A stretch of 64,000 nt of DNA, taken from assembly GCA_040879385.1 (NCBI GenBank), contig JBBDKM010000057.1, positions 4,838 through 68,837 on the forward strand, written 5' to 3'. The position numbers were made by a program, and so were the translations under genes. How positions within the stretch are numbered: position 1 is the first letter of the stretch; each line of letters opens with the position of its first letter. The notes beneath the pieces are model-generated. The model saw nothing but the letters and a program-made list of their open reading frames with translations. It did no database searches and was not told the origin of the DNA. Below are positions 16,856-41,727 of the stretch, in pieces. Source of the stretch: Thermoanaerobaculia bacterium (lineage in GTDB: Bacteria; Acidobacteriota; Thermoanaerobaculia; UBA5066; Gp7-AA6).

Positions 16856-16927
16856 CGCGGCGGCAGGTCAATCAGAACGACGTCGGAGCTCTCGCGGTAG
16901 CGGTCGAAGAGGATCTGCTTGCCGTCA
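16856..16927 (-). pseudogene. Relic of the last ~25 codons of a Ser/Thr-kinase-propeller paralog
   Basis: Minus translation [24 protein letters not shown] compared with the kinase-1 terminus [24 protein letters not shown] (about 85% nt identity across 17777-17850). Abuts the hepT stop codon. Confidence 0.6.
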
Positions 16928-17341
16928 GACGGCCGGCAACCGCTCGCGAATCACGGCAGCAAACTGCAACAGGTCGCCGAGACGGTTGCGCAAGACGTCC
17001 TCGACGACGGCCAGATCGACAGCGTCGTACCCGTGCACGAGAACGTTTCGGAACCCCACCATGTTTCGAAGGGTCCGCGTCAGTTCGGGCGCGATCCAGC
17101 CGCCGCGCTCGAGCAGGTCGAAGAGCTCGCGATTGGTGCGAGGCTCTCCCATCCTTTCGTCAGACACGATGTGGGAAGCCACGTCCAGGGCAGCCTGAAT
17201 CGCAAGCTGGAGAGTGTGCTCGATGAACCGCCGCTCGCGAATGTCCTGGCGGATCCTGTCCGGTTGGGCGAGCGTCCGAAGGTCGCTCACACACGTCTCG
17301 ATCTCCCCGAGCTTCTTCGCGATCAGCTCAGGGTCGGTCAT
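16925..17341 (-). CDS. hepT: HepT-family toxin (DUF86, type VII TA, tRNA-targeting RNase family)
   Basis: RNVLVHGY = Rx4HxY catalytic motif. 138 aa. 4-nt overlap with the upstream nucleotidyltransferase. Confidence 0.85.
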   Translation of the reverse strand: MTDPELIAKKLGEIETCVSDLRTLAQPDRIRQDIRERRFIEHTLQLAIQAALDVASHIVSDERMGEPRTNRELFDLLERGGWIAPELTRTLRNMVGFRNVLVHGYDAVDLAVVEDVLRNRLGDLLQFAAVIRERLPAV

Positions 17342-17742
17342 GAGACTGCGCGCTCGAGCTTCCGATAGCGGCGAAGGATCGGGAGCAAGTCGAAGTACTC
17401 GTTGCGGGCCTTCACCTCGAAGTCGATGCGCGCGGACCGGTTCGCCTCGCAGAGGAGCCGGCCGTCTCGAAGGACGCGGTGCACGAGATCGACGGGCGCC
17501 GAGTTGAGAACGACCACCTGGACCGCTCGTCCCAGGAGACGTTCTAGTTCTCCTTCGAGAGTGAGATTGGGCGAATCGAGCGTTCCACGCGGCTTGTCCG
17601 CATAGAGCACCGCCACATCCACATCGCTGCCGGGTCCGGCGGTCCCCCGGCCTTCACTGCCGAACAGATAGACCGCGATGCTCCCTCGGGGCCGCGCGGA
17701 AAAGTAATCTCGAAGCTGCTCCTCTGTGTCCGTCCCCTGCAT
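17338..17742 (-). CDS. mntA: MntA-family minimal nucleotidyltransferase antitoxin
   Basis: LFGSEGRGTAGPGSDVDVAVL = GSx10DxD nucleotidyltransferase motif. Partner of hepT. Confidence 0.85.
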   Translation of the reverse strand: MQGTDTEEQLRDYFSARPRGSIAVYLFGSEGRGTAGPGSDVDVAVLYADKPRGTLDSPNLTLEGELERLLGRAVQVVVLNSAPVDLVHRVLRDGRLLCEANRSARIDFEVKARNEYFDLLPILRRYRKLERAVS

Positions 17743-17776
17743 TCTGAACAGTATAGCGGCGGCGCCCTCGGTCTGC

Positions 17777-20434
17777 TCAGCTCGGCGGCAGGTCGATCAG
17801 GACGATGTCGGAGTTCTCGCGGAAGCGGTCGAACAGGATCTGCTTGCCGTCGGGCGAGACGTCGAAGCTCTTCATGTCGAATTCCGGCTTCAGGTTCGTC
17901 AGCTGGCGCAGGCGGCCGGTGGAAAGATCGAGCAGCCAGAAATTGATGCGCCGGAACGCTCCCTGCATGACGACCACGGACTTGCCATCCGGCAGGAATC
18001 TGTAGCGGTCGCCCCCGCCCGGGACGTCGCACTCGGGCACGGAAAAGGCCTGTCCCTCGGGCGATACGCCCCGGATCCGAACTGCCGAACCGCGTTTGGC
18101 TTCCGAGTAGAGGATGAATCTCCCGTCAGGCGACCAGACCGGATTGGAGATGACCGCGTCGACCCCGTCGACCAGGCGCACCGGCGCTCCCCCGTCCACG
18201 GGTACCTCGAGAAGCGGAGTCGCCTTCCCGTCGCTCGCGACAACGGCGATCCACTTTCCATCCGGAGACCAGGATGGGGCGCCGCCAACCCCGACGGTCT
18301 CCGCGATCGGTCGCGCGCCGGTGCCGTCGGAGGCCATCAGGTAGAGATGCGCCCGGCCTTCACGCTCAACCGGAAAGCAGATCTGGGTCCCGTCAGGAGA
18401 AATGGTTGGCGCTTGCGCCACGGTGCCGTCGCTCCCTTTCCAGAGCTCCAGCTCGGAGCCATCCTTGTGCTTCCACAGTCCGTTCGTGCCACCCTTGGAG
18501 GAGAGATACAGGAGGTAATCGGGCGCGAATCGCGGAGCGGCCGCGCTCCTGGTCGGCAGCTCGAAGTGGCTCACCCCCGACTCATCGACGACGTGGTCCG
18601 TGATGGGTGCCATCCAGAGGTTTCGGAGGGGGTTGGCCACGGTTGCGGCGAGCCGGCGCCCATCGGCACTGGCGCTGACGGACTGGTACTCCTCCACTCC
18701 CGAGGTCATCGCGTGCGGAATCCGTCGCTCGACATCCATCGCATAGAGACCCGACCCGGAGCCGTCTTCCCGCGTGGCCAAATAGATGAGTGTGCGGTCG
18801 TCGAGCATGGCCGGATAGGTCACCCGCGAATCGTGGTGAGTCAAACGCTCCGCGGCTCCGCCGGCAGAAGCGATCCGCCAGAGATCCGAGTTGTTTGGAG
18901 GTCTCCCGTGGACGAAATAGACGTAGCGGCCGTCCGGAGACCAGGTCGGAAAGTGATTGTGGATTCCAGGCTTCTCCTTGAAGATCTCCCTGGGACTCCC
19001 GCCGTTATGGTCGGCAATGAAGATCGGATCGCCCGGGTCCACCGAATGGAAGAGGAGCCTGGTCCGGTCCGGAGACCATACCGGCTCAACGGCGTTCTTG
19101 AGGAAGGGGCGCGGCAACCCGCCCATAGTGGGCACGAGCCAGGAGTCCACTAGTTTTCCGTCCTTCTGCATACGCGGCAACGACACCTGAGCCCCATCGC
19201 CGGAGAAGCCGAGGTCGCGAGTCCGTCTCCCGGCAAGGGACGGGGCCTGTCCCTTTGTGAGATTCAGGAACTCGCCGCCGCCCACCTGGCCCACCCAGGC
19301 GTCGAACGAGCCACCGCGGTCGGAGACAAAGGCCACGAACTTGCCGTCGGATGAAATCGCCGCACCGAGCTCAGAGCCTTGCCAGTCGGTGAACCGCGTG
19401 AACCGGGCGCCCGCCAGCGGGTTCTTCCAGAAATAGTCGCGCTGCCGCAGACGCCATCCCGCGATCCCGAAGGCGACGAGAATCGCCGCGGCGATTGCCG
19501 CCGGAATCCACCGGCGCCGTCGGCTCGGCGGAGCCACCGGCACAACAGCTTCGATCGCGCTCGTCGCTTCGGAGAGATGATCGCGAAGTGTCGCCAGATC
19601 GCGCGCGAGGTCTTCGGTCGACGCGTAGCGACTCTTGGGCCCCTTCGCGAGACACCGTTCGACGATCCATCGCAACTGAGTTGGAACCCTGGAGTCGATC
19701 GTTGCGATTGGCTGCGGCTCCTCCCGGATGATCGCCGTCAGTGTCTCCGGGGCCGAACCGCGGACGAACGCGGGCCGGCCCGTCGCCATCTCGTACAGAA
19801 TCGAGCCGAACGAGAACTGGTCCGACCGGAAGTCGATCGATCCGCCCGTCGCCTGCTCGGGTGACATGTAGCCGACAGTGCCGAGGATGACGCCCTCTTC
19901 GGTGGCTCCCGAGACCGTCGGCGCCTGCGTCCTCCCGCTGCCGCTCGAGTCCGGTTGTGTCAGCTTCGCCAGCCCGAAATCCAGGATCTTGACCAGGCCG
20001 TCCTCGGTCACCATGACGTTCTCGGGCTTCAGATCCCGGTGGACAATGCCCGCGGCGTGTGCCTTCCCCAGGCCTTCGGCCACCTGCGCGCCGATCTGAA
20101 GGAGACGCTTCGTCGGCAGCGCCCCCTCCGAGAGCGCCGCCCGCAACGACTCTCCCTCCACCAGCTCCATCGCGATGTAGGAGACCGAATCCGCCGACCC
20201 GATATCGTAGATCGTGACGATGTTGGGATGATTGAGCGACGAGGCCGACCGGGCCTCGCGTTCGAACCGCTTCAGACGCTCGGGGTCTGTCGAGAGCGCC
20301 GCCGGGAGCACTTTGATCGCCACCTCGCGCCCCAGCCGCGTGTCCCGCGCCCGATACACCTCCCCCATCCCGCCCGCGCCCAGCGGCGCGAGGATCTCGT
20401 AGGGGCCGAGGCGTGAGCCGGCGGAGAGTGTCAC
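17777..20434 (-). CDS. Ser/Thr protein kinase fused to TM segment and TolB/PD40-like beta-propeller (paralog 1)
   Basis: [22 protein letters not shown] (P-loop), [46 protein letters not shown]. Repeated PD40-like blades (SPDG.../WSPDG...). GTG start. Confidence 0.9.
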
Positions 20435-20460
20435 GGAGTTGGCGTAATCCTACCTTCAGC

Positions 20461-20760
20461 GCGGCGGCAGATCGATGAGAACGATGTCGGATGGCGATCC
20501 ATTTCCCGTCCGCAGACCAGGAGGGCGCTTCGCGAACTTCGAGCGACTGCGCGATCAGCCGCGCGTTCGTGCCGTTGGAGGCCATCGAGTACAGGCGCCC
20601 TCGCCCCTCACGGCGAATCACAAGGCAGATCTGGGTCCCATCGGGAGAAACCGCAGCCGCAGCGGCTACAACCCCGTCACTCCCCTTCCACAACTCCGTT
20701 TCCGAGTCGTTCTGGAACTTCCACAGTCCATCCGCCCCGCCCTTGGACCGGCAGAAATGG
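20461..20760 (-). pseudogene. 5'-truncated, internally deleted fragment of a kinase-propeller paralog
   Basis: Minus translation ...[67 protein letters not shown] is joined out of frame to [11 protein letters not shown], i.e. a deletion of about 0.5 kb relative to kinase 1. Confidence 0.6.
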
Positions 20761-20876
20761 TCATTCAGGTCTCTTTGATCGGTCCCTCGCGGCGATCGGC
20801 CACAGCGCTCCGTCTTGGATCCGGCGATCCCCTGCCCGACGCGCGTCGACGCAAGCCTGGGATCCGGAATCCGGGC

Positions 20877-21314
20877 CTACCAGCCCTTGATCACCGCGAT
20901 ATCGGGCATCGGATAGTGCTTGACGTTCTGGGTATAGATCTTCCCGCCGGTCGCCGCGGCGGTTGCGGCCAGGATCGCGTCGTTCACGTCGATGCCGTGC
21001 GACGGATGCCAGCGTCGATAGAAGGCTCCCGCCGCATCGACGATCTCGCGCGTCACCGCTTCCGTTCGAAACCGCGACAGGAGCGACAGGGTCGCGGCCT
21101 CTTCGGCGGGGCGCAGGAAGAAGACGACCTCCGCGCGATGGATCGCGCCAGTCCACAACTCGGCGCCGGGGTCCCGCGACAACTTCCGCAGCAAGCGCGC
21201 CGCCTTCGGCTCGCCGCGCAGGTGCCAGATCAGGATGTCGCTATCGACGTACGCGCGCACGCTTGCCCTGCTGGTGCCGCTCGAAGCCGCGTCGAAACGC
21301 CTCCCGCGACTCAC
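20877..21314 (-). CDS. vapC: PIN-domain toxin
   Basis: AYVDSDILIWHL (first acidic residue) and GIDVNDAILAATA (PIN motif). True start probably GTG near 21257 (VRAYVD...). Confidence 0.8.
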   Translation of the reverse strand: MSRGRRFDAASSGTSRASVRAYVDSDILIWHLRGEPKAARLLRKLSRDPGAELWTGAIHRAEVVFFLRPAEEAATLSLLSRFRTEAVTREIVDAAGAFYRRWHPSHGIDVNDAILAATAAATGGKIYTQNVKHYPMPDIAVIKGW

Positions 21315-21522
21315 GTATGGAGCTCTCCGGACGCTCGGCCCGATTCCAGGCGCCGAGCGTCTCTGACCAGACGTCCCGGGACTCCGATCCCTCGAGCTGC
21401 CGGGCCCTCAGATGAATGGCCTCCTCGAGAAACCGGCGCTTCGTCATCTTGAGCTTTCGGGTCACTCTTTCCATCTCATCCAGAGCGGCCTCGTTCAGCC
21501 GGGCCGAGAAAATCCTTTCCAT
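21241..21522 (-). CDS. vapB: Ribbon-helix-helix (CopG/VapB-type) antitoxin
   Basis: 93 aa. N-terminal MERIFSARLNEAALDEMERVTRKLKMTKRRFLEEAI fits an RHH beta-strand plus two helices. Overlaps the vapC start. Confidence 0.7.
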   Translation of the reverse strand: MERIFSARLNEAALDEMERVTRKLKMTKRRFLEEAIHLRARQLEGSESRDVWSETLGAWNRAERPESSIRESREAFRRGFERHQQGKRARVRR

Positions 21523-21529
21523 GCAGGGC

Positions 21530-21560
21530 CCCCTTACGTAAGCATGATAACGTAAGACCG
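21530..21560. promoter_or_regulatory. Candidate VapB operator: perfect palindrome CTTACGTAAG plus half-site repeat ACGTAAG
   Basis: cttacgtaagcatgataacgtaag lies about 10 nt upstream of the RHH antitoxin start. A GC-rich hairpin (gcccctgtcc...ggacaggggc, ~21602-21646) follows in the divergent truA/vapB intergenic region. Confidence 0.4.
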
Positions 21561-21695
21561 AGGTTGGGTCCGGCTGCCCTCCGCGGGGGCACGCCCGAGC
21601 GCCCCTGTCCTCCGCCCCGGTCCCGGTCGCCTCGGGGACAGGGGCCGCGATCTCCCCCGCCTTCCGCCCGCTGCCAATCCCGGTAGACTCCGCGC

Positions 21696-22427: not shown

Positions 22428-22431
22428 GCCA

Positions 22432-23197: not shown

Positions 23198-23212
23198 GGG
23201 GCTCTACAGCAC

Positions 23213-23403
23213 GTGTCGGCGGCTTCGATCGCCGAGCGTCGTGTCCCGCGCGCGGTACATCTCCCCCATCCCGCCGGCGCCGAGGAAAGGCAGGATCAGG
23301 CCGGGTTCTACAGGACGTCGGCGGATTTCCTCAGCCCGCGCCGAGCGGCCCGAGGATCTCGTAGGGACCGAGACGAGAGCCGGCGGAGAGTGTCACGGAG
23401 GCT
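23213..23403 (-). pseudogene. Scrambled 5' fragment (~35 codons) of a kinase paralog
   Basis: Minus strand: GTG ACA CTC ... [21 protein letters not shown], a ~45-nt insertion, then [25 protein letters not shown], then junk. The GTG overlaps the vapC stop (ccGTGAca). Confidence 0.55.
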
Positions 23404-23821
23404 TATGTTCCTTCGTTTCCTTGCGCGCTGCCCGATTGAGTGCCTCATCGAACGCCGAAAATCGGACCTGACGCGCGCCGGCCCGGTAGAGAGAGAGGTA
23501 GGACGCGAGGTGAAGGCTGTCAAAGCCGCGAAGATGATGCTTCTCGGCAAGATCTCCAGCGCTGCGGTAGACCGCCTCGCTGACCTCGATGGTCAGATAC
23601 CGGGGCCAGTCCCGCTCGAAGTCGTTCCTGGCTCGATCGTACCCGGCGCTCGTGAGTCCTCCCTCGCGTCGCTGGCGGGCGAGTGCCGCCCGCGCTTCGG
23701 CGTAGGCCACGACGGAAGTCGCTACGAGCTCGGCGCGATCCACGAGCTCCCGAATCAGGGCCGACCCTTCCTCCTCGACGTACAGCTTAACGAGGCTGCT
23801 CGTGTCGAGATAACCGATCAA
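23393..23821 (-). CDS. vapC: PIN-domain toxin
   Basis: MIGYLDTSSLVKLYVEEE and GFDSLHLASYLSL (PIN acidic residues). 142 aa. Overlaps the antitoxin by 4 nt. Confidence 0.85.
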   Translation of the reverse strand: MIGYLDTSSLVKLYVEEEGSALIRELVDRAELVATSVVAYAEARAALARQRREGGLTSAGYDRARNDFERDWPRYLTIEVSEAVYRSAGDLAEKHHLRGFDSLHLASYLSLYRAGARQVRFSAFDEALNRAARKETKEHKPP

Positions 23822-24090
23822 CGACGGTCCTCAAGGACCATCTCCGATGTCGCCTTCTTCCCCTTCCGCAAGGCCGTCCTCGCACTTCCCCGAGGTTTGC
23901 CGCCGCTCCAGTTCGCGACCCTTTCGCGGACCAGGATCCACCCCCAACGCGCCTCTTCCGTCTCTTCGATCGGTGTCAGCGCCGCGAGCGGCTCACCCCG
24001 ATCCGTCACGACGATCCGCTCGCCTTCCCCGGCGCGCCTCAAATACTCGCTCAGATGATCCTTGAGGGCCCGGACTCCAATACGTGTCAT
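23818..24090 (-). CDS. Phd/YefM-type antitoxin
   Basis: MTRIGVRALKDHLSEYLRRAGEGERIVVTDRGEPLAALTPI is a typical Phd/YefM/VapB N-terminus. GGAGG 9 nt upstream. Inverted repeat gtggcc-N19-ggccac at 24106-24136 is a plausible operator. Confidence 0.8.
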   Translation of the reverse strand: MTRIGVRALKDHLSEYLRRAGEGERIVVTDRGEPLAALTPIEETEEARWGWILVRERVANWSGGKPRGSARTALRKGKKATSEMVLEDRR

Positions 24091-24249: not shown

Positions 24250-24952
24250 GCTACCGCCGCGCGAGCGCGCAGCCGAAGGCCTTCGTCTCGGCCGGCCGGA
24301 TCGGCTGCCCCGCGAGCAGGGCCTCAATCGCCGATTGCAGGTCCGGAGCGGACAGCTTCGAGGCGATCCGCCCGTGGTAGCGCAGCGTGCCGCTCGAGTC
24401 GAAGAGGAATGCCTCCGGTGTGCGCCGGGCGTCTAGGAGCTCCGGCGATGCGCCCCTCCGGGTTCTTGATGATGTCGAAGGTGTGGCCGTGCTCTCGCGC
24501 GTGAACCCGGGCCTCCTCCGCGGTCTCCAGCGTCCCCGAGTTGACGCCCACGAAGGTCACGCCCCTCTTTGCAAACGCCGTCGCCATGTCCCGGATCAGA
24601 TCGTTGTAGTAGTTGGAGTAGGGACAGATCGTGGATATGAAGAGGATGACGACGGCGCCGTGGGTCTTCCTCGCCTCGGCGAGCGAGAGGCGGGGCCCGT
24701 CGGCTCGCAGGCGTACCAATCAGTATTGTTGATGAGACCGACACCTTGGTCGCGCCGTCCCTCCACGGATCGAAATCGCAGCGGTTCTCGATCGCGCTGC
24801 CGAGGCGCCTGTAGGTGCCCTTCAAATCGCACGAGCCCGGAGACCGACTACAGCCGGTGCGCGATCATGCCGCGACCCGCTGGCGCTGCCAGAACCAGCA
24901 CCGTGACGACGACGGCCAAACGGTAGGAGCCGCCGGACACCATCTCAGCCAT
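24250..24952 (-). pseudogene. TlpA/ResA-like thioredoxin-fold protein (CxxS active site) disrupted by at least 3 frame breaks
   Basis: Segments in three frames: MAEMVSGGSYRLAVVVTVLVLAAPAG (membrane anchor) / FDPWRDGATKVSVSS / HGAVVILFISTICPYSNYYNDLIRDMATAFAKRGVTFVGVNSGT...DIIKNPEG / AFLFDSSGTLRYHGRIASKLSAPDLQSAIEALLAGQPIRPAETKAFGCALARR*. Confidence 0.55.
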
Positions 24953-25020: not shown

Positions 25021-25200
25021 TCATCTCCACCAGCTCGGGCCGACTTCACTGAGGATGAGCCTGCTCGAATCGGTGAGGATCGTATACGCGTAAAACCGCC
25101 CGTCGGGCGTACCTTCGATCGTCAGCGCCAGCACGCGCCCCTGCGTCCTGCCGCGGTCGAAGAAAACACGAGAACGGACACAGCCACTGCGGCTCGCCAG
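25021..25200 (-). pseudogene. Possible relic of the terminal propeller blade of a kinase paralog
   Basis: Minus translation ...RVLALTIEGTPDGRFYAYTILTDSSRLILSEVG resembles kinase C-termini (MMTPDGKSYAYNCSRDLADLFLVTGVR; [12 protein letters not shown]...). Lies directly 3' of kinase 2. Confidence 0.35.
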
Positions 25201-25252: not shown

Positions 25253-27790
25253 CTATCGGACACCGGTCACGAGAAACAGGTCCGCCAGGTCCCTCGAGCA
25301 GTTGTAAGCGTAGGACTTCCCGTCGGGCGTCATCATGAGATCGGCATTCCAGATGCCGACCGGGTCCTGCGGCGTGATCGTTTTCCACGGCTCACGCCGG
25401 CCGGTCGAGAGCTCCACCCGAAAGACCCGAAAGGGCAGCTCGTCGATGTTCCACGCATACGCGAAACGGCCGTCTTCGCTCCAGTTCCTCCAGATGTAGT
25501 CGGTCGGCAGGAAGCCTGCGACAGGCCGTCGCTCCCCTCCATCAGTCGGGTAAATCCAGAAGTCGTTGCCCGTTTGCACGACCACGAAATGCCCGTCGGG
25601 GGAAATTGAAGCGCATTCCGCATTCACGCCCTCCAGGGTGACCGCCCGCGGGGGCCCCCCGGCGAGCTCTTGCACATAGAGCCTCCCCCCGTGTCCTTTT
25701 TCATGAGCGCCAAAGAGCAGCCGCCGCCCGTCCTGCGACCATCGGACGTAGAGGCGGTCATACCCTTCGATGGTCCCTCGCTCGAGCAGCCTCTCCTGAC
25801 CCGCGCCAGTGGGAACGAGAACGAGCTGCGCCGGCGGCCCCGCACGAACCACGGCCGCCCATTTCCCGTCGGCCGACAGCTCCGAAGCAAACCCCTCGCC
25901 GAGCTTCTTTGGAGGAGAGCCGTCGCTCCGGCGCAGATAGAAGCCGCCATTCTCATTGTCGAGCAGCATCTTTCCGTCGGCGGAGAGACCCATCGCGTTC
26001 GAGGACCCGAAGATCGTCAGATTCCGCTCTCTCGGTTCGCCCGCGGAACCTGCCCAGACTTCGTATCGGCGACGGTGGACGCCGAGGAGCATTCGTCCGT
26101 CTCTTGAAACGTCTTCCACGGTCAGGCCGTGGGGCATTCGCAGCAGCACGCGCTCCCTGCCCGCGAGGGTCACTGCCCGAAGCGTGCTGCCACCGCCCCG
26201 TTCATCCGTAGCGAACCAGATCTCGTCGCCCGAAGGGCTCCAAGCGAGGCTCCGCACGTCCCATCCCGAGACCGCGCGGCTCACGACCTCCATCTCGTGC
26301 CCGGAGACATCGGTCGCATGGAGGCGGTGCTCTTCAAGGTACGCGATGAGGTCCCCCGCCGGGGAAAAGCGTGAAAGAAAAGAGTGGCCCCGATGAATGA
26401 CCTTCCCAACGGGAAACTCGAGTTGGTCGCCCCGAACCACCATCATCTGCTTGCCGTCGGGGCTCCAATCGGCCCACCGGACATCTTCCGCTATTTCCCT
26501 GGGAGCTCCTCCCGCCAGCGGGGCCGTGGCGAGAGTTCCGCTCACGTAGAACCAGCCCTGGTCGATCTGAATCCTCCCCGTGATGATGGCGAGCTCACCG
26601 CTCGAAGAGAGGGAAACCAGACTCGCATCGGGAAGATCGAGTCTTTGCGACTCGGGAGCCTCAGGTCGCGTCAGGAAGATGCGGGGAGGGTCGCCGTCCC
26701 ATCGAGCGCTGTAAACGATTGTACGGCCGTCGGGTGTAAAGCGGGCTGCGCTGACGAAGCCACTGCGAAACGTGAGCCTCTGAAATGACGGCTGTGAAAG
26801 CGGCGGCTCTTTCCAAAGCATCCTGCCGGCGAGGAGACTCGCCGCGAGGAGGGCAGCCGCGGCGAGCACCTGATTCAGGCCCGTCCTGCGGCGCGGCGCC
26901 GCGGCGAGGGTCCCGCCGGAGCTGGCTTCCGAGAGGTGCCCCCCGATGGTCGCGAGCTCGCGCGCGAGGTCCCTGGTCGAGGCGTAGCGGGCTTCGGGAT
27001 CCTTGGCGAGGCAACGCTCGACGGTCCAGCGCAGCGGCGCTGGCGCTTGCGGGCTGACCGTGGCCATCGGCGCGGGTTCCTCGTTGATGATGGCCGAGAG
27101 CGTTTCCGCTCCGGTCTTTTTCAGGAACGCCCGCTTGCCCGTAGCCATCTCGTAGAGAATCGATCCGAAGGAGAACTGGTCCGACCGGAAGTCGACCAGC
27201 TCCCCGCTCGCCTGCTCCGGCGACATGTAGCCGACCGTCCCCACGATCATCCCGGGGCTCGTGCCCGTCTCCGTCGGCAGATGGGATCCCTCGTCGCTGC
27301 CCGACCCCACGTGCGTCGGCTTCGCCAGACCGAAGTCCAGGATCTTCACCAGCCCATCCTTCGTCACCATCAGGTTTTCGGGCTTCAGGTCCCGATGCAC
27401 GATCCCCGCTTCGTGCGCCTTTGCCAGTCCTTCCGCGATCTGGGTTGCGATCGGCAAGAGCTTCCGGGTCGGGATCGCTCCGCCCAGAAGAAGCTTGCGG
27501 AGCGTCTCTCCTTCGACTTTCTCCATCGCGAGGTAGGAAACGCCGTTTGCCGACCCGATGTCGTACACCGTAACGATGTTCGGGTGGTTCAGGGCCGACG
27601 CCGACCGCGCCTCCTTCTCGAATCGCCTCAGACGCGACGCGTCCAACGAGAGCTCCGAAGGCAGCACCTTGATCGCCACCTCACGATCGAGCCGCGTATC
27701 CCGCGCCCGATACACCTCCCCCATACCGCCCGCACCGAGCGGCGACAGCACCTCGTAGGGACCCAGGTGCGCGCCGATGCGAATGGTCAC
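25253..27790 (-). CDS. Ser/Thr protein kinase fused to TM segment and TolB/PD40-like beta-propeller (paralog 2)
   Basis: [64 protein letters not shown]40-like repeats through to ...MMTPDGKSYAYN. Confidence 0.9.
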   Translation of the reverse strand: MTIRIGAHLGPYEVLSPLGAGGMGEVYRARDTRLDREVAIKVLPSELSLDASRLRRFEKEARSASALNHPNIVTVYDIGSANGVSYLAMEKVEGETLRKLLLGGAIPTRKLLPIATQIAEGLAKAHEAGIVHRDLKPENLMVTKDGLVKILDFGLAKPTHVGSGSDEGSHLPTETGTSPGMIVGTVGYMSPEQASGELVDFRSDQFSFGSILYEMATGKRAFLKKTGAETLSAIINEEPAPMATVSPQAPAPLRWTVERCLAKDPEARYASTRDLARELATIGGHLSEASSGGTLAAAPRRRTGLNQVLAAAALLAASLLAGRMLWKEPPLSQPSFQRLTFRSGFVSAARFTPDGRTIVYSARWDGDPPRIFLTRPEAPESQRLDLPDASLVSLSSSGELAIITGRIQIDQGWFYVSGTLATAPLAGGAPREIAEDVRWADWSPDGKQMMVVRGDQLEFPVGKVIHRGHSFLSRFSPAGDLIAYLEEHRLHATDVSGHEMEVVSRAVSGWDVRSLAWSPSGDEIWFATDERGGGSTLRAVTLAGRERVLLRMPHGLTVEDVSRDGRMLLGVHRRRYEVWAGSAGEPRERNLTIFGSSNAMGLSADGKMLLDNENGGFYLRRSDGSPPKKLGEGFASELSADGKWAAVVRAGPPAQLVLVPTGAGQERLLERGTIEGYDRLYVRWSQDGRRLLFGAHEKGHGGRLYVQELAGGPPRAVTLEGVNAECASISPDGHFVVVQTGNDFWIYPTDGGERRPVAGFLPTDYIWRNWSEDGRFAYAWNIDELPFRVFRVELSTGRREPWKTITPQDPVGIWNADLMMTPDGKSYAYNCSRDLADLFLVTGVR

Positions 27791-28467: not shown

Positions 28468-28594
28468 CCCCGGAAATAAGCCGGAGATTCCCCGCGAATT
28501 CGCAACGACTCCGGCGCGCCCTGAGCGAGATCTTGATTATCGCGCAAAGGGCATCCGAAACACGGATGACCCGGCGCTCCGAAAGGAGTCGCCC

Positions 28595-29853: not shown

Positions 29854-30038
29854 TCCACATTTCTGCGACGCGTTCAATTCGCCGGATCGTACTGGGGGTC
29901 GCGAGAGAAATCGCCCCGCTCGCAGCTTCTCGAGCCGCGAAGGTTGTTTCGTTTTCGACACCGAATTTGAACTGGTCTCCACATTGCTCTTTGGGAAGTC
30001 ACCACGAAAGTCGTGGAAAGTACTTTGGAGGTTTAGTC

Positions 30039-32981: not shown

Positions 32982-33004
32982 ACTACAACCCAACGGTTCA
33001 TTTC

Positions 33005-33034
33005 GAGGGGCCCCTTGCGGGGCCCCTTTTTTTC
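33005..33034. terminator. Rho-independent terminator, likely bidirectional (TBDR on +, GWxTD gene on -)
   Basis: gaggggcccc-ttgc-ggggcccc followed by TTTTTTT. 24 nt after the TBDR stop. Confidence 0.7.
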
Positions 33035-33046
33035 CCCCGGAACGGA

Positions 33047-34120
33047 TCAGTCGTTCGACTGGTCCGGTCCCTGTGCGGCCAGCTCGAGGGTGGTCAACAC
33101 GTTGGGATCTCTCTGCAGCACGGCGACGCCGTAGCCCCGCTTCGTGAGGAACTCGAACTCGACCTCGGCGAATCGCACGGCGGCAGGCAGGCGGTCGCGC
33201 CGGTAGTGCCAGACATCTCGCGTTCCCTGGAGGTGCTCGGTGGTGAGCCCGTCGCGCGGGGCGTACACGAGCCGCGTCGAGCCGTCGGGATTGCTCCGCG
33301 GCTCGAGCAGTGGCGCCGCTCGCAAGGTCTGGACGGCGTCGTCTTCGGGCATCAGGGGCCGCTGTCCGATATAGCTCGGCGGACCCAGAAGAACGAACAC
33401 CATCCCGCGGTCGGTCCCGCTTCCTTTCGCCTCGCCGTCGTTGAACCGGCTATCCGCAAAACGGACACGGCGCTCGATCTCCGCCCGGTATTCGTTCTCC
33501 GGGGTCTCCGGCGTCGGGTCCCGACGCTGCCAGAAGGCAGCGACGAACTCGGCGCGCGTGACCGGGTCGCTGATTCGCTTCCAGTCTTCCTTCTCGCTCT
33601 TGCTGTTCAGGAACCGAAGCGCGCCGTCCGCCCACTTCTCGTCGATCGGCAGGGGCGGTACCGGCGCCGATCGCTGAAAGCGCGCGTACTCCTCGGCGAG
33701 CCCACCCTCGCCCGACTCCCGCCCGCGCGAGCCCTCCCCCCGCACGCTCCGATACAGCTCGACCACGGACTTCGGATACGTCCCGGGATCGAGCCGCGCC
33801 GCCGGCGACGGCGACGAGGCCACATAAGCCTCGAACGCTGCGCGCGCCTGTGCGGTCCGCCCGAGCGCCGCGAGGTTGACGGCGCGGTAGAAGGCGATGG
33901 CGGACTCGAGCTTCTTTCGCGACGTCTCGAATTCCGGTTTGCGGCCTTCCTCGTCCAGCGTTTGCAGCGTCGAGAGCGAGGCTTCGTAGGCGCCGTGCGT
34001 GAACTGCCCCTTCGCGCGATTGAAGAGCTCGGCCAAGGACGGAGCGGGCGCATCCTGCGCGGCGACCCGGCCGGCGATGCTGAGGAAAGCCGCGAGAGAT
34101 AAGGCTGCGATGCGTTTCAT
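33047..34120 (-). CDS. GWxTD domain protein (secreted)
   Basis: Signal peptide MKRIAALSLAAFLSIAGRVAAQ. Core KEDWKRISDP...FVAAFWQRRDPTPETPENEYRAEIERRVRFADSRF...GSGTDRGMVFVLLGPP matches the GWxTD domain. Confidence 0.75.
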   Translation of the reverse strand: MKRIAALSLAAFLSIAGRVAAQDAPAPSLAELFNRAKGQFTHGAYEASLSTLQTLDEEGRKPEFETSRKKLESAIAFYRAVNLAALGRTAQARAAFEAYVASSPSPAARLDPGTYPKSVVELYRSVRGEGSRGRESGEGGLAEEYARFQRSAPVPPLPIDEKWADGALRFLNSKSEKEDWKRISDPVTRAEFVAAFWQRRDPTPETPENEYRAEIERRVRFADSRFNDGEAKGSGTDRGMVFVLLGPPSYIGQRPLMPEDDAVQTLRAAPLLEPRSNPDGSTRLVYAPRDGLTTEHLQGTRDVWHYRRDRLPAAVRFAEVEFEFLTKRGYGVAVLQRDPNVLTTLELAAQGPDQSND

Positions 34121-34173
34121 GATTGGCCTCCTGGAGAATCTCACTGTATACCTCTCGCCCACTGTCGGCTCAC

Positions 34174-35809
34174 TCACTTCAATCCGCTGACGAGGTAGAG
34201 ATCAGCCAGTGTTCGCTGGTATGAGTAAACATAGGATCTGCCATCATCAGCGATGAAGAAGCTCGTGATGCCCCAAAAGCCGGCAGGGTCGGCCGGGACG
34301 ATCTGTTTCCATAGGCCCCTGTGCCCTGTCGCGACATCGAGGCGGGAGATGCTGAACGTAGTTCCAGTCCTCTCCATGAGATAGACACTACGACTGTCCG
34401 GCGTCCACTGAAGCGGCCGATCGCCCGGATACACTCCCGGGAGAAGCTTCGACTCTCCGCTTTCGACCGAGTACCGAGACAGCCTTCCATCCGGACCGTT
34501 GGCGAATACCCAAAGGCCATCCGGGGAAACAGGCTTCGATGCCCGAATCGGACGTATACCCTCGGGAGTGATCGGTCGAGGCCGGCCACCCGCAAGCTCC
34601 TTCACATAGAGGCGCAGGCCATGTCGGGGTTCTTCACCTGCCACCAGGAGGCGCCGGCCGTCGGGGAAAAACGAGGCACCGCGAAGAGTGAGTCCGTCGG
34701 GCGAAAGGGGCTTCGGCTGCCCCGATTTCGTGGGCACGAGAACGATTTGTCCGGCTGAAGCGTTCGCCCTGGAAACGACCCAGAGCCCGTCGGAAGACAA
34801 AGTGCCGCAGCCTCCGTCGAAGAGTCGGGTCGGAGCCGAGCCATCGGTTCGGCCCAGATAGAGCCGATAGTTCCCTCCGACACCGGCCCCCGACTCGTCG
34901 AAAGTGAAACTTTTCCCGTCTGAAGACAGATCGCACGCGAAGGAGTAGTCGAGCCAAGACAGATCTTTTTCTACGCTTTCGCCAGGTGCAAGACCAGTAA
35001 TTTGCATGCTCGACGTGTGCTCTCGTACGAGAACGCTTCCGTCGCCGGCAACGTCAAGAAGCGTCATGGGCGCCGGACTACGCAACAGAACGCGCTCGTT
35101 CCCCGAAAGGGACACGGCGTAGAGCGTATCTGCGATTCCTTGTCTCGACGCCGTGAACCAGACTTCCCGGCCCTCTCGGGACCAGGCGAGGCCGCTCATG
35201 CTTGTGAAGCCTGAGGCAAGCGTCTTTTTCCCACCTTTGCGATCCACCACCGCGACCGAGCCCCCGTCGTCACCGGGGTCCGGATTGTCCAGGAACGCTG
35301 CCAGATCGCCTCGCGGGGAAACCCGCGGGGAGCGAATCTCTCCTGCCGTCACGTAGAGCACGCTGCCGATGGGGTACTCCATCCGAACCGTCCCTCCCAC
35401 GTTGCGTATGACGAGGAGGCTCGATCCGTCGGCTGCCCAGTCTGCGGCCGTCCGCGATCTGTGTGGCAATCGGCAAAAGCTTCCGGGTCGCAAGCGCTCC
35501 GCCCACGATCAGCTTGCGCAGCGTCTCCCCTTCCACCCTCTCCATCGCGATGTAGGAGAGCCCGTTTTCGGACCCGATGTCGTACACCGTGACGATGTTC
35601 GGGTGGTTCAGCGCCGAGGCCGACCGCGCCTCCTTCTCGAAACGCCTGAGCCGCGAAGCGTCCGACGCCAGCTCCGAAGGCAGCACCTTGATCGCCACCT
35701 CACGCGAGAGCCGCGTGTCCCGCGCACGGTACACTTCACCCATACCGCCGGCGCCCACAGGCGCGAGCACCTCGTAGGGACCGAGACGCGTTCCGCTCGC
35801 GAGGGTCAC
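34174..35809 (-). pseudogene. Kinase-propeller paralog with large internal deletion and frameshift
   Basis: N-terminal 125 aa are intact ([31 protein letters not shown]...LPIATQIA), then an out-of-frame junction into the propeller ([19 protein letters not shown]...), with loss of the catalytic loop, DFG, TM and first blades. Track ORFs 35270..35809 and 34174..35493 are the two pieces. Confidence 0.75.
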
Positions 35810-35813
35810 GCGG

Positions 35814-38375
35814 TTACCGAATCCCGTCCAAGGCGAAGAGGTTCGATGAGTACTCGCTCATTTGGCGGACATAGGACTTCCCGTCTCTCGAGATGACGAC
35901 GGCAGAAATCCAACCACCCGGATCGGGAGAGAACTGCATCCAGGGCTTGCGCTCGCCCGTGGCAGGGTCGAGAAGAAAGACTCCCGGGAACACCGGCCTG
36001 CGAACGAAGAGCCGGCGCCCGTCCTGACTCCACTGGATGGGGAATTCCGGAAGGTGGCGAGACTCGAGTCCGCGGACCGGCTGAGGATCCCCGCCTTCGA
36101 TCGGATAGAGCGACGCCTGCTTCTTTTCATCCATCCCCACGACGAGCTTTCCGTCCGGCGAAACGACGCTGCCGCCAAAATTGGGCAGGTAGACGCCCTG
36201 CGGTGTGATCGGTCTGGGAAGTCCGTCCGAGATGTTCTGAAGGTAGATCCGCGGCTTCGCGCCGGCAGCGTTTGCCGCGAAGACGATCCTCTTCCCGTCG
36301 GGAAGCCAGTTCGCCCAGCCGACGGTGTTCAGACCTCCATTCGGAAGCCGACGGGGCTCGCCCGCCCCCGCTGGCAGCAGATCGATCTCGTCGGCGATTC
36401 CGGTCGACGTCGCGATCACCCAGTTCCCGTCCGGGGAAAGAGCGCGCGCGTAACCCCGGCCGATCAGCACCGGAGGACTCCCCGCCTCGCGGAGGTAGAT
36501 GGTCGAGCTGGTTCCATAGGATTCAATCTCGTTGAAGAGAAGGCGGCTTCCGTCAGCCGACAGGTCCACGGGTTGCGTGCCGGCTAGATGCGAGAGGTTG
36601 CGCTCGCCGGAATCGCCCCGGAGGCGTCCAGAGGCCCTGGAGCGGTTCGTCCCCTTCTCGAGCAGGACTCGACCGGTCCGAGAGATGTCGCGGATCTGGA
36701 AATCGCCCGCCAGCGATGCGAGGAGCCGATCGCGGCCGTTCGGAGTCACCGCGCGGAGCTCGGTTGCACCCCCTTCGATCTTCGCGTACCAGATTTCGTC
36801 GCCGCGCGGAGACCAGGCGAAGAAATCGCAGTCCGCCGCCTGACGAAGCCTTTTGACCTTTCCGTGATGATCGACGAGCGCCAGTCCGCCCGGTTCGATG
36901 AACGCGATCAAGTCTCCCTTCGGAGAGACGCGACAGCCGCGGATCGAGCTCCGGATCTGGGCGGAGGCCCCCCTTTCATAGAGGACCTTTCCGACCGGAA
37001 ACTCGAGACGGTGGTTTCCATCGACCGAACGCACGACGGCCAGGGTCTTCCCATCCGGCGACCAGTCTGCGTCCCACACGTTCTCGAGCAGCTTGCGTGG
37101 AGAGCCACCGGCGAGCGCCGCCTGGGCGAGCGTTCCGGGCGACGTATCTCCGCCATCCTGAAGAAATGCCATCTGCCCGCCCTTAGAGATCGAACAAATG
37201 TCCCTTGCCGGAATGCCGAGTGGCCGGGATTCGGGACTTCCAACCCGCCCCATGAAAAGTTCGTCGCCGTCTTTGCGCCACGCGGCATAGACGAAGGTCT
37301 CGCCGTCAGGGGCAAATCGGGCCGTCATGATCCCCTGCTCCTCGAAAGTCACCTGTCGGAACCGGGGAGAGTCGCCGCCCGGGGCCGGCCGTGGCCACTT
37401 CCAAACGAGCAAGGAGCCGAGGATGACCACGGCCAGGGCGAGAGAGGCGGTCAGGACTTTCTGTCTCCGGAGTCCCAAGCGACTCCGAGGCTCGCCGCGC
37501 CACGCCAGCTCGTCGGACAGATGACCAGACAAACCGACCAGATCGTTCGAGAGATCGCGCGTCGAGGCGTAGCGGCCCTCCGGCTCCTTGGCCAGGCATC
37601 GCTCCACGATCCAGCGCAGCGGCGCCGGCGCCTGCGGAGCGACCTCGGTCATCCGCGGAGGCTCCTCGTTCAAAATCGCCGACAGCGTGTCCACCGCCGT
37701 CTTCTTCTGAAACGCCCGCTTGCCCGTGACCATCTCGTAGACGATCGACCCGAAGGCGAACTGGTCCGAACGGAAGTCCACGACCTCGCCGCTCGCCTGC
37801 TCCGGAGACATGTAGCCGACCGTCCCCACGACCGTCCCCGGGCTCGTCCCCGTCTCGGTCGGAAGATGCGGCCCCTCGTCGCTGCCCGAGCCCACGTGCG
37901 TCGGTTTCGCGAGGCCGAAGTCCAGGATCTTGACCAGGCCATCTTTCGTGAGCATCAGGTTCTCGGGCTTCAAGTCCCGGTGAACGATCCCGGCTTCGTG
38001 CGCCTTGGCCAGGCCTTCCGCGATCTGCGTGGCGATCGGCAACAGTCTCTTCAGAGGGAGTGCGCCGCCCACGAGCAGCTTGCGCAGCGTCTCCCCCGTT
38101 ACCAGCTCCATCGCGATGTAGGAAACGCCGTTCTCCGACCCGATGTCGTGGACCGTGACGATGTTCGGGTGGTTCAGCGCGGAGGCCGAGCGCGCCTCCT
38201 TCTCGAAACGCTTCAGCCTCGACGCATCCGACGCCAGCTCCGAAGGCAGCACCTTGATCGCCACCTCGCGTGAGAGTCGCGTGTCCCGCGACCGATACAC
38301 CTCGCCCATGCCTCCGGCGCCGAGCGGCGAGAGCACCTCGTAAGGGCCGAGACGCGCGCCGGAAGCGAGGGTCAC
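35814..38375 (-). CDS. Ser/Thr protein kinase fused to TM segment and TolB/PD40-like beta-propeller (paralog 3)
   Basis: [62 protein letters not shown]40-like repeats. Only 5 nt from the TBDR-2 stop. Confidence 0.9.
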
Positions 38376-38379
38376 GCTG

Positions 38380-41331
38380 TCAAGGACTCAGAAAGAGACG
38401 CGAACGGCCGCGCGAAAGAGGCCGCGGGTCCGAGCGACCGGTGACCTCCCCGTACACCACGTTGTCCTGCGCCTGATTGGGATCGTGGATCGTCGCGGGA
38501 TATCCCGCTGGCTGACTGACGGTCCACTCGTCGTTTCGGAAAGTCGCGATCTGCTTGTCGAAGACGTTGAAGAGGTATGCCTGGAGTGTCACGGTCGCAG
38601 GGCCGACGACGACCGGGTACGAGAGCGTGAGGTTGGTCCCCCACAGCGTCGGCAGCCGCCCCGCCGAGCCGCGCGGATCGAGGTAGATGACCGAGCCGTA
38701 GAATTCGTTCAGGTAGCCAGTTCGGTTGAGCGGCGCACCCGACTCGGCAAACGCCTGGAGGCCGATGGAGAGGCGCCACGGCGTTACCCAGTAGCCGTCC
38801 AGCCGGAAGCGGTGAGGTCGGTCGAGGGCGAGAATCCCGTATGCGTTGTGCGACATCTCGGGATAGTCGAAGTCGGCGTTGATGCCGGGCCAGGTCTATC
38901 CATAGGGGCCCTGGTTGACGCCGCCGTCGTAGTTCCCCCGCAAGGACGAGTAGACGTAGCTCGCCTGGAGCCAGAGGCTCGTGCCGATCGACTTGCGCGC
39001 GAGGAGCTCGAGGCCCCGATAGATACGGCTGACCGAAGGGACGGCGGGGCCTGTTGAGGAGCACTGACGCCAGTCGAAATCGAGCCCGTTACACGTCGGA
39101 ATGTCTCCACTGGCGATATCGCCGCTCGAGCCGGGATTCACCAGGCCGCATTGGCTGAAGTTGGTTTCGGGGAAGCTGTAATCGAGATCACAGCGATCCT
39201 CGAGGACGTTGCGTAGGGTGCGGTAGGTCCCCTTCAATCCGACCGTCAGCGTAGGCCCGAGCATCCTTCCCACACCCGCCGTGAGCTCGTCCTGGTACCA
39301 CCCCCGAGCACCGGAGTCCACGGCGTCCCCGAAGGCGCCGCCGCCACCCAGGGCTTCTTCGTGTCCGATCACGTTCTCGTCCTGCGTCACGCTGACAGGG
39401 TCGAAGTTGTAGGTCCTGAAAAACGTTCCCATCCCGAACACCAGCACCGCCGCGACGGTCGGCAGGGCGTAGGAAAAGCGACCGGCAAAAGCGTAGAGCT
39501 TCGTCTCGCCGTTTCGCCAGGGGTCCCAGACGACGCCCAAACGGGGCTGCCACTGGTCGCCGAAGCTCAGGACGGTCTGACCCGCGTAGTTGCGTGTCTG
39601 CTCGCCGTCCCACCGCAGGCCCAGGTTGACTGTCAGACCCGGCGCGGCCTTCCATGAGTCCTGCAGGTAGACGCCGTAGTCCAGAACCCGCGCGCCGAGC
39701 GGACGGCCCGGAACCACCGTTGGGTCGTCGGGACTCACTGCGTAGAAGGAATGTTCGTAGTAGAGCTGGCCGCGCTCGTTTCGGATTCTGACGCGCTGGC
39801 CGCCCGTGAAGAAGTTCAACGCGGTTGTTCGACCGTTCTGATAGTCGCCGCCCAACTTGATCTCGTGGTCGTCCGCGTAGAGCGTGAGCCCGGCGGCGTA
39901 CTGTTGACGTTCCGACGTGCTGTGGTCGTCGACGCCGAAGATCCGGCCGTATCCTCCCGTGATCGAGTTAGGCTCGAACGGAAGGGCGCATGGATCGTCG
40001 GGCGTGCCGCCGGCGCATGTCTGGTCTTCATACCGGATGCCGTCCGGAGGTGTGAGGGCGTTCTCGTTTTTGTGGTACGAGCCCTGGAGCGTCGCGATCG
40101 CCCGGGAGCCGTAGAGCTGCGTGGCGCGAACGCCGAAATCGGTGCCGCCCTGAAACCGCTCGGAGTACCAGGTCGAAGGGTCGGGACTCACGGGCGGCGT
40201 CGCCTCGCCAACACCCAGGCCCTGCCGCGGATCGGCGCCCGCCGCACCCGAGCTCTTTGTCGGGTCGGCGAACACCGTGCCGACGATCGTCGTCGAGCTC
40301 GCCGCGTTCCAGGTCAGCTTCCCGGAGTAGAGGTTGTTCGTCGCATCGAGGGGGAACCGATCCTCCGTCGAAACGTAGGTCGACGATTGCAGCCGCGACA
40401 GCTCACTCTGGATCGTGACACGGTTGTAGGCGCCGAAGAACCACAGTCTGTCCTTGAGAAGGAAGCCGCCCAGGTCGACGCCGTAATCGAATCGCTCGCC
40501 GTCGGCGAGACGCATCTCGGCGATGCCCGAGTCTCCTGGCTTGAGCTCTCTCTCGGCCGCAGTCGACGTCGAGTCGTAGTAGAGAAAGCCGTCGCCGTGA
40601 AACGTGTTGCCTCCCGACTTCGTGATCACGTTGATGACGCCGCCGAGCGCCCGGCACTCGGCCTGGTAGCCTCCTGTCTTGACCTCGACCTCCTGCACGA
40701 ACTCGTTGTTGATCGCCTTGCCCTGAACTCCCTTGAAGACGTTCGTCGTGTTGACGCCGTCGATGATCCACTGGTTCTCGGCGGAGGTCGCGCCGTAAAC
40801 GGTCAACGCCAGCGAGCGGCCCTCCGTGGTGCCGCGATCGGTCGAGACACCGGGGTTCGACTTCACGATGTCTGCGTAGTTGCGGGCCGTCGGCAAATGC
40901 GAGATCACGCCGCTCGTGTAGTTCGTGCCGGTCGTGGTCGAAGTCGAGTCGATCAACGGAGCCTCTCCCGTCACCGCGATCTGCTCTTCCAGCGCGGGCT
41001 CGAACACCAAGTCGGCGCTCGATGTCGCGTCGAGCGAGACGGTGGCCGACTTCTCGGCGGGACGGAACCCGGGAAGGGCCGCGCGAACCCCGTAAATTCC
41101 CGGCGGAAGGGCCGGGAATCGGAACCGGCCCTCGCTGTCTGTCGCCCCGACGCGCACGCCCTGGAGACTTGCGCTCGACGCCTGCACCGAGACGCCGGGA
41201 AGCGCGCCTCCGGCAGTGTCCCTCACGACTCCCTCGATCAGCCCTGTCGTCTGCGCGACGGCTAAGCTGCAAACGAGCAAGCCGCAGAAAGACAAGCGGA
41301 GCGACGCCGAGAACCTCGGCCTGATTGGCAT
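38380..41331 (-). pseudogene. TonB-dependent receptor-like OMP (CarbopepD_reg type) interrupted by a single in-frame TAG
   Basis: Track ORFs 38896..41331 and 38380..38856 are in the same frame (516 nt apart), separated by one amber codon: ...GNYDGGVNQGPYG * TWPGINADFDYPEMSHNAYGIL... The whole protein is collinear with the 30039..32981 receptor. Could instead be a sequencing error. Confidence 0.7.
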
Positions 41332-41541
41332 GGGAGTAACCCCCCAGTTGAGCCATTCTCATGCCGGCGCGTTGCGGAGATCAAGAACGATCCGGGATCG
41401 GCGGTCGCGACTCACGAGAATTGGTCGGCGGAAACGCAGAATTCTGGATTTAGGGAATGACGATTTTGTAAGGGTTTCTGTGAAAGATCCTCAGAATGTG
41501 CACGTTAGATGAGATTCAAGAGTCGAGTATCGTCAGTCACA

Positions 41542-41727
41542 TCACCGAAGCCCTTCGACCAGGTAGAGGTCCGAAGTGCACCGCATGAGGCTGTAGGCGT
41601 ATGAGCGGCCGTCGGGCGTAATGCGGACTCGGGAGTCGCGCGCACGGTACACCTCGCCCATCCCGCCGGCGCCAAGCGGGCCGAGCACCTCGTACGGGCC
41701 AAGCCGCGTACCAGCCGGAAGTGGCAT
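41542..41727 (-). pseudogene. 61-aa in-frame N-terminus/C-terminus fusion relic of a kinase-propeller gene
   Basis: [33 protein letters not shown] fused directly to [28 protein letters not shown]. About 2.4 kb of kinase and propeller is missing between them. Confidence 0.6.

Follow-up and report, generated by a model that had tools for sequence, protein, structure and literature searches.

An array of intact, broken and relic sensor-kinase genes in a Thermoanaerobaculia bacterium

In the Mycobacterium tuberculosis complex, the pknH1-tbd2-pknH2 region (RD900) encodes kinases with highly similar kinase domains and different sensors, copies of which have repeatedly and independently been lost by recombination, and lies beside embR, whose product is a transcription regulator with a forkhead-associated (FHA) domain and a substrate of the kinase (PMC7785237). 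Loss of RD900 leaves one intact, in-frame gene and takes place by homologous recombination (PMC7785237). In Acidobacteriota, passages of a study of Candidatus Solibacter usitatus name two classes of signalling paralogs as the most notably expanded, Ser/Thr kinases and winged-helix regulators, and describe them as under purifying selection, dispersed, old and less than 50% identical (PMC3174227). The word "pseudogene" is absent from the text of that study, and the passages searched describe no tandem arrays, relics or domain-level exchange (PMC3174227). Here we describe a 64,000-nucleotide stretch (the window) from a Thermoanaerobaculia bacterium (GCA_040879385.1, contig JBBDKM010000057.1, positions 4,838 to 68,837 of the forward strand). 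Some 25 kb of it hold three intact genes for Ser/Thr kinases with a beta-propeller sensor (K1, K2 and K3), one pseudogene of the same family (K4) and five short relics, all on the same strand. We read this as a plastic locus under birth-and-death evolution of a lineage-expanded sensor-kinase family, through duplication, exchange of kinase halves and illegitimate deletion, and give that reading a probability of about 0.8.

The array resembles pknH1/pknH2 in its tandem transmembrane Hanks-type paralogs, its domain-level mosaicism and an adjoining gene for an FHA regulator, whose best match in PDB is EmbR, through the FHA domain. Copies have also been lost repeatedly, and copy number varies. The sensor differs. 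It is a TolB-like/PD40 propeller and not the PknH sensor fold. Unlike EmbR, the regulator combines Trans_reg_C and FHA domains, with no BTAD match in Pfam. The pair formed by K2 and this regulator would be analogous to PknH/EmbR and not a member of that family. Unlike the events at RD900, the deletions in the window appear illegitimate and leave behind dead stubs; the array also belongs to another phylum and has many more copies. With the Solibacter study, as far as its searched passages go, the window shares the phylum and the same two expanded gene classes.

An initial annotation, made from the window's letters, had listed nine pieces of kinase-propeller genes. We mapped such pieces by tblastn with the three intact proteins, by sensitive blastn self-alignment and with a profile hidden Markov model (HMM) of 79 full-length homologs (859 positions). 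All nine pieces are real, at essentially the coordinates first given. The self-alignment recovers relics 1 to 3 as similar to K1 (91%, 72% and 92.5% at the nucleotide level), and the family HMM finds no further kinase relic in the 64 kb. Together with the regulator gene, the pieces are as follows.

16852-16926, minus strand: relic 1, the last 24 codons and stop of a K1-type gene (blastn, 91% over 77 nt to the K1 3' end, E 2e-23)
17777-20434, minus strand: K1, intact Ser/Thr kinase with a transmembrane segment and a TolB-like propeller, 885 aa (Pkinase 165.9 bits, PD40 122 bits)
20456-20756, minus strand: relic 2, what is left of a tandem paralog resembling K1 (K1 residues 643-744, 57% aa and 72% nt identity, E 1e-30)
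23231-23396, minus strand: relic 3, a K1-type N-terminus (residues 1-21 at 92.5% nt identity, then about residues 22-40)
25048-25128, minus strand: relic 4, terminal blade and C-terminus of a third subtype ending in "...GPxWWR", just downstream of K2 (short-peptide search)
25253-27790, minus strand: K2, intact kinase-propeller gene, 845 aa (Pkinase 158.5 bits, PD40 35.1 bits)
27787-28467, minus strand: winged-helix (Trans_reg_C) and FHA regulator (Pfam), the presumed phospho-dependent partner of K2
34174-35809, minus strand: K4, kinase-propeller pseudogene (tblastn, HMM)
35814-38375, minus strand: K3, intact kinase-propeller gene, 853 aa (Pkinase 161.5 bits, PD40 56.4 bits)
41542-41727, minus strand: F61, in-frame fusion of 61 codons joining a kinase N-terminus (34 aa, with the P-loop) to a terminal-blade C-terminus (27 aa) (HMM)

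K1, K2 and K3 had been called intact, and the domain searches agree. Pkinase and PD40 score above the Pfam gathering cut-offs (31.7 and 20.9 bits) in each, and each spans HMM positions 1-857/859 (1-859 for K3). Their translations carry all Hanks-type catalytic motifs, from GxGxx through SPE. By domain score and motifs they are predicted Hanks-type Ser/Thr kinases, with predicted phosphotransfer activity. TolB chains are the top PDB matches of the K1 sensor domain (E 2.6e-14); together with the PD40 scores, this similarity points to a TolB-like/PD40 beta-propeller as the sensor half of all three. The domain content suggests a cytoplasmic Hanks-type kinase domain, one membrane helix and a periplasmic TolB-like propeller.

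Relatives retain intact genes where the window holds remnants. We refer to related loci by L numbers, each oriented with the kinase on the plus strand. In L003 the order is a K1-like paralog, K1b (2451-5114), the K1 ortholog (5125-7767), the genes MNT and HepT, and a DUF1501 gene. The intact tandem gene at 2451-5114 stands at the place of relic 2, and the presence of MNT/HepT in this order marks the pair as ancestral. In L058, an orthologous Phd/PIN gene pair is followed directly by an intact kinase gene, of which the window has only about 40 codons (relic 3). L027 has an intact receptor gene after its K2 ortholog, at the place of a receptor relic in the window. Tandem copies are numerous in relatives, and fragments also occur in L004, L005, L023, L029, L040, L049, L051 and L061. 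These tandem copies and fragments, with the intact genes of L003 and L058, uphold the earlier proposal of repeated duplication followed by deletion. A rough count over 79 related loci gives 114 full copies and some 10-15 true short relics, or about 0.1 per intact copy. Decay of kinase genes thus appears general in the family and unusually dense in the window.

The K4 pseudogene has lost the middle of its sequence. Its kinase part (35447-35809) covers residues 1-121 and is 84-88% identical to K2 and K3; its propeller part (34177-35445) corresponds to K2 residues 440-845 and is joined to the kinase part out of frame. The internal deletion and frameshift proposed for this copy are therefore as described. 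About 316 codons are gone, among them the catalytic loop, the DFG motif, the transmembrane helix and the first blades. With the match ending at residue 121, and HRD and DFG missing, K4 lacks the catalytic motifs of a kinase. The junction (…QIADG | ADWAADGSS…) has an overlap of at most 3 nt. The propeller part is 73% identical to the L051 ortholog, with a ratio of nonsynonymous to synonymous divergence (dN/dS) of 0.165, against 0.23 for intact genes. This is as low as in the intact genes, so the inactivation would be recent on that time scale.

F61 is the N-terminus/C-terminus fusion that it had been taken for. It joins HMM positions 1-34 in frame to positions 831-859 (E 8e-18 and 2e-4) and lies directly after purL. 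An exact-sequence look-up did not find it among the called proteins of the public collection. An analogous fusion in L004 (about 12674-12775, just upstream of purF) joins kinase residues of about 45-66 in frame to the last 15 residues (…EREARSASS|), with different breakpoints.

Relic 1 begins within the HepT stop codon. After HepT, L003 reads GTCTGACGAAGA and lacks the relic, where the window reads GTCTGACGGCAAGCAG..., codons that spell PDGK in the last blade; the junction has the microhomology GACG(G). The relic peptide matches the C-terminus of L003 K1 at 23 of 24 residues and that of the window's own K1 at 20 of 23. Relic 1 and the 3' end of K1 itself (17775-17851) form a 77-nt direct repeat that brackets MNT/HepT. 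One microhomology-mediated event would be the simplest account of this repeat. It might have been an import of the K1 3' end with MNT/HepT, joined homologously on one side and illegitimately on the other (homology-facilitated illegitimate recombination). Alternatively, a duplication may have preceded a deletion.

The last 24 or so codons of K1-type genes (17777-17851 in the window; the gene ends in L003, L004 and L005) are conserved at about 80-91% in their DNA between species. This stands against a synonymous divergence (dS) of about 1 in the propellers of the same species, and amounts to an unexplained local constraint. It could reflect codon use or structure, or a signal that serves expression of the gene downstream. 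Since the DNA of the segment matched by relic 1 is about 89-91% conserved between species, the high identity of relic 1 needs no recent conversion.

Relic 2 had been described as truncated at its 5' end and internally deleted, and its alignment agrees. Beyond the equivalent of K1 residue 744, an internal deletion with a frameshift joins …DGKWIA to SDIVLIDL…, and the relic closes with residues 874-885 and the stop (the last 11 codons), 21 nt upstream of the K1 start. Relic 3, whose start codon overlaps the stop of the neighbouring PIN toxin gene (GTGA), is indeed a 5' relic. It is not scrambled, as had been supposed, but interrupted by an insertion. This insertion is about 59 nt long (23285-23343, minus strand) and is flanked by the 8-nt direct repeat CTCGGCGC. 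Relics 2 and 3 were also considered as the two ends of a single gene split by insertion; this was rejected, because truA and a methyltransferase gene, which separate the two relics, are conserved at this locus in relatives. Relic 4 corresponds to the piece that had been listed as a possible relic at 25021-25200. It matches the extreme C-termini of two third-subtype proteins of L039 (68% over 28 aa, E 5e-14), which bears the suggestion out, and has no significant match to the general family HMM (E 1.1). The open reading frame (ORF) that holds it had no match in an exact-sequence look-up in the public collection.

The deletion junctions are intragenic or run from a gene into its neighbour, with microhomology of 0-5 nt. 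No chimeric crossover between paralogs was found among the junctions examined. The initial annotation had proposed deletion between paralogs; the short microhomology argues instead for illegitimate deletion and not unequal crossing-over. Several right-hand breakpoints lie just upstream of the "PDG" blade motif. Homology is easiest to detect at this motif, so their position is only suggestive.

Much of the array is reproduced in other assemblies. Window 24174-45382 (21,209 nt) recurs at 99.976% identity in a second metagenome-assembled genome (MAG), GCA_040882545.1, which differs there by five single-nucleotide polymorphisms (SNPs) and no indels and contains F61, K3, K4, K2, the relic at 25021 and an in-frame TAG in a receptor gene. 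An independent Logan contig is colinear over window 27656-35690 and spans the K4 junction, so that the K4 structure is present in both. Artefact is therefore excluded for F61, K4, the relic at 25021 and the receptor nonsense codon. Three MAG records encode an identical K1 protein. Among the samples compared, as consensus assemblies, window 24174-45382 has no structural variation.

The kinase and propeller halves of these genes have robustly discordant histories. Between K2 and K3, identity is 83% for the kinase and 41% for the propeller; for K2 and its L027 counterpart the values are 69% and about 70-71%. The K2 kinase domain is closest to that of K3 (83-84%). K4 and K3 share 88% in the N-terminal part of the kinase and 36% in the propeller, and K4 and L051 share 74% and 73%. 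The K1 ortholog of L003 is 90% identical to K1 in the kinase and 65% in the propeller; K1 and L005 stand at 66% and 67%. We tested the discordance with dN/dS and bootstrap triplets. The kinase-domain relationships have bootstrap values of 99.8-100%, and the same relationships reach 0-6.5% in the propeller. Among the kinase domains of K2, K3 and K4, dS is 0.52-0.63, versus about 1.0 in both halves for K2 and L027. Recombination of whole kinase domains among intact paralogs appears to have occurred; it would be old (dS about 0.5-0.6), with the relics not involved.

These results fit a sequence of three steps. Genes would first have been duplicated in tandem, as tandem pairs, found both in the window and in relatives, suggest. 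Because the two domains have discordant histories, co-resident paralogs probably then swapped or homogenised their kinase halves, and their sensor halves diverged meanwhile. Homologous recombination or gene conversion would have brought about the exchange. Redundant copies would at last have been lost piecemeal by illegitimate deletion at 0-5 nt of microhomology, a step proposed because of the junction anatomy and the intact orthologs in relatives. Such deletions would leave N-terminal, C-terminal and N/C-fusion stubs, with breaks also at the edges of neighbouring genes. The relics would be non-functional by-products, and the receptor and redoxin neighbours would show the same decay.

Three gene pairs adjoin relics in the array.

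16925-17742, minus strand: MNT (17338-17742) and HepT (16925-17341), downstream of K1 (Pfam NTP_transf_2/Polbeta and HepT)
20877-21522, minus strand: putative antitoxin (21241-21522, 93 aa) and PIN toxin (20877-21260) (Pfam PIN)
23393-24090, minus strand: Phd/YefM antitoxin (23818-24090) and PIN toxin (23393-23821), directly upstream of relic 3 (Pfam PhdYeFM and PIN)

By family match, the three are predicted type II toxin-antitoxin modules, with predicted activity. MNT/HepT occupies the same position in L003 (80-82% aa identity), the Phd/PIN pair has its ortholog in L058, and the L004 orthologs of the remaining pair are 86% and 91% identical. The 93-aa partner in that pair is conserved, though it has no Pfam match; the stop of its PIN toxin (20877) lies 120 nt upstream of relic 2. 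Two of the three pairs are syntenic in relatives next to intact kinase genes (L003 and L058), which makes them residents and not agents of disruption. They would be long-standing in the array, with neighbouring kinase genes lost or duplicated later.

Decay in the array is not specific to kinase genes, as three neighbours show.

24324-24719, minus strand: redoxin/AhpC-TSA pseudogene (Pfam, frame plot; intact orthologs in L051 and L054)
24757-24834, minus strand: short relic of a TonB-dependent receptor, downstream of K2 (receptor HMM E 2.6e-4, tblastn E 3.5e-4, both weak)
38380-41331, minus strand: TonB-dependent-receptor-like gene (CarboxypepD_reg, Plug and barrel) with an in-frame TAG at 38896-38898

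The redoxin pseudogene has a frameshift after "…NPEGRIA" and lacks the signal-peptide N-terminus of its L051 and L054 orthologs. In the long receptor gene, the TAG replaces the codon for a Gln that is conserved in four homologs (…YGQT(D/N)P…). The gene is split identically in the second MAG and is therefore a real single-step nonsense pseudogene or a case of read-through. At L004 9118-9207, a 30-residue C-terminal fragment of an FHA regulator lies just upstream of a VapB-like/PIN pair, so regulator genes leave relics too.

Several points weigh against birth-and-death by illegitimate deletion as a full account, or limit it. Relics 1 to 3 (16.8-23.4 kb) lie outside the part compared between assemblies. 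The source is a MAG of an uncultured organism, in which "intact" means an open reading frame with conserved motifs. Kinase domains have lower dS even between orthologs (0.50 versus 1.07 in the propeller for K1 and L003). Identity at four-fold sites is by itself not significant, and kinase synonymous identity is higher even between distant paralogs. The K4 propeller half shows no relaxed constraint: either the deletion is recent or this half is still used. The window has about two relics per intact copy against about 0.1 in the 79 loci of the rough count, an unusual density that is unexplained. Finally, the stops of all three toxin genes lie 120 nt or less upstream of a relic, which is unlikely by chance and which deletion accounts for only in part.

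Each alternative has some of these facts on its side. It is hardly credible that metagenome assembly or binning produced the fragments, the frameshift and the in-frame stop, for instance by misjoining paralogs at repeats. In favour of this, the genome is a MAG, its paralogs share kinase-domain DNA that is 83-84% identical, and one Logan contig ends within the kinase-like 5' part of K4. Yet the second MAG, another assembly, runs colinearly through F61, the receptor TAG, K3, K4, K2 and the relic at 25021, the independent Logan assembly crosses the K4 junction, and the junctions, those of relics 1 to 3 included, join non-homologous sequence, which repeat collapse cannot create. Function is also very unlikely to be what keeps some remnants, be it F61 as a P-loop peptide, the K4 propeller as a stand-alone protein or relic ends as carriers of expression signals. 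F61 has an ATG, an open frame and an upstream purine-rich motif like that of K1, the K4 propeller has its low dN/dS, and relic 2 stops just short of the K1 start. However, F61 is not a called protein elsewhere and its L004 analogue has other breakpoints, the K4 propeller half has neither transmembrane helix nor signal peptide and cannot reach the periplasm, and chance open frames are long at 65-68% GC. Partial silent copies feed gene conversion at pilE/pilS of Neisseria and vlsE of Borrelia, in the service of antigenic variation. The initial annotation had speculated that the relics could likewise act as silent donors in gene conversion of the expressed kinases; in this reading they would lack promoters and supply diversity. 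They share with those systems partial copies of unexpressed type near full-length ones, on the same strand and here within 25 kb. Identity to the ends of K1 stands at 91-92% in relics 1 and 3, and recombination between family members has happened. We nevertheless find this highly improbable. Unlike the donors of pilE or vlsE, the relics are short and without long blocks of identity: the longest exact match of the small relics to intact genes is 12-24 nt (35-41 nt between the N-terminal part of K4 and K2/K3). They span conserved termini (the P-loop N-terminus and the last blade) and not the variable sensor, and relic 2, the only one from the sensor region, is 72% identical to K1 in nucleotides. 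Nor are they kept in relatives, where relic 1 is absent from the orthologous L003 site and other relics differ in position and breakpoints. The compared part is invariant, with 5 SNPs and no indels over 21 kb that include K2 and K3, and the K1 protein is the same in three MAG records. With K1-type 3' ends conserved between species, the identity of relic 1 alone is no sign of ongoing conversion. No recombinase, reverse transcriptase, invertase or integrase is annotated in the flanks.

The toxin-antitoxin pairs suggest two further explanations. They might be mobile cassettes whose insertion broke the kinase genes and left the relics as scars. In favour, a kinase relic lies no more than 120 nt from the end of each of the three toxin genes, the 77-nt direct repeat of the K1 3' end brackets MNT/HepT, and, compared with L003, relic 1 has the look of an insertion. 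In L003, however, MNT/HepT follows an intact K1 ortholog with no repeat; in L058 the Phd/PIN pair precedes an intact kinase gene, and L004 keeps the third pair in synteny with truA and a methyltransferase gene. The adjacencies are therefore older than the truncations. Nor do relics 2 and 3 complement one another as halves around a cassette: between them lie the housekeeping gene truA and the methyltransferase gene, both conserved there in relatives. No transposase or integrase is annotated. We consider insertion unlikely. Type II toxin-antitoxin cassettes in chromosomal integrons have been proposed to limit large deletions. The window is alike in that three pairs sit within a recombination-prone array and deletion ends abut them. 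It differs in that the Pfam annotation of its called genes (about 7,800 to about 58,400) contains no integrase family, attC sites not having been searched for. A protective cassette would also be unlike these, as the toxin gene and not the antitoxin gene faces the deletion in each case, so that the pattern can be explained with no protection by the pairs. A further reading is an active, selected turnover of the sensor repertoire in Acidobacteriota, in which a homogenised kinase half is repeatedly recombined onto diverging or new propellers, the pairs mark or limit deletion ends and the relics are by-products. This is possible, though we hold it doubtful. If true, it would mean concerted evolution of one gene half with birth-and-death of the other, a bacterial counterpart of plant receptor-kinase family dynamics and a generalisation of pknH1/pknH2.

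Under birth-and-death by duplication, kinase-half exchange and illegitimate deletion, the locus is dense but ordinary, with no programmed variation system and no new mechanism. It offers a snapshot of the expansion and contraction of a signalling family, with intact, freshly broken and near-erased copies side by side and pre-decay states in relatives. The separate histories of kinase and sensor bear on how Acidobacteriota with many Ser/Thr kinases rewire environmental sensing. For annotation, it means that the split genes and short kinase-like ORFs of such MAGs are genuine remnants of pseudogenes and do not arise from noise in the assembly.

The array lies on the minus strand between purL (41762-43981) and convergent DUF1501/DUF1800 genes (13627-16598), in a window of about 65-70% GC. 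Related stretches number more than 597 in each of two collections, nearly all from Acidobacteriota. The kinase genes have their nearest relatives among MAGs of Thermoanaerobaculia and other Acidobacteriota; the best relatives of K1 in a metagenome scan are 65-69% identical, with none closer. L100, L129 and L143 have purL-truA-kinase and kinase-DUF1501 arrangements. The array would therefore occupy a conserved frame with varying content, one that, on the evidence of gene order, expands and contracts. Scans of the window for tRNA genes and Rfam families gave no matches, and a promoter and terminator consensus scan of 16.5-25.4 kb found nothing exceeding shuffled expectation.

K2 and the FHA regulator gene overlap at GTGA, which holds the start of the former and the stop of the latter, and in many related loci an FHA/winged-helix regulator gene lies directly upstream of kinase genes of the same family. 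K1 and K3 have no FHA regulator gene directly upstream. CarboxypepD_reg-type TonB-dependent receptor genes recur next to the kinase-regulator modules. A periplasmic ligand bound by the propeller would activate the kinase; the FHA regulator would then bind a phosphorylated target, or be phosphorylated itself, and control transcription. From domain content, phosphorylation of the regulator by the kinase and FHA-mediated binding are likely, and the regulator may control the adjoining TonB-dependent receptor genes. Beyond the regulator gene, two overlapping plus-strand ORFs (28595-29128 and 29125-29853; 177 and 242 aa) lie 5' of a plus-strand TonB-type receptor gene (30039-32981). Pfam gave no match to either, although the MAG annotation lists both as genes. 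Judged by position, they may form a regulatory pair for that receptor.

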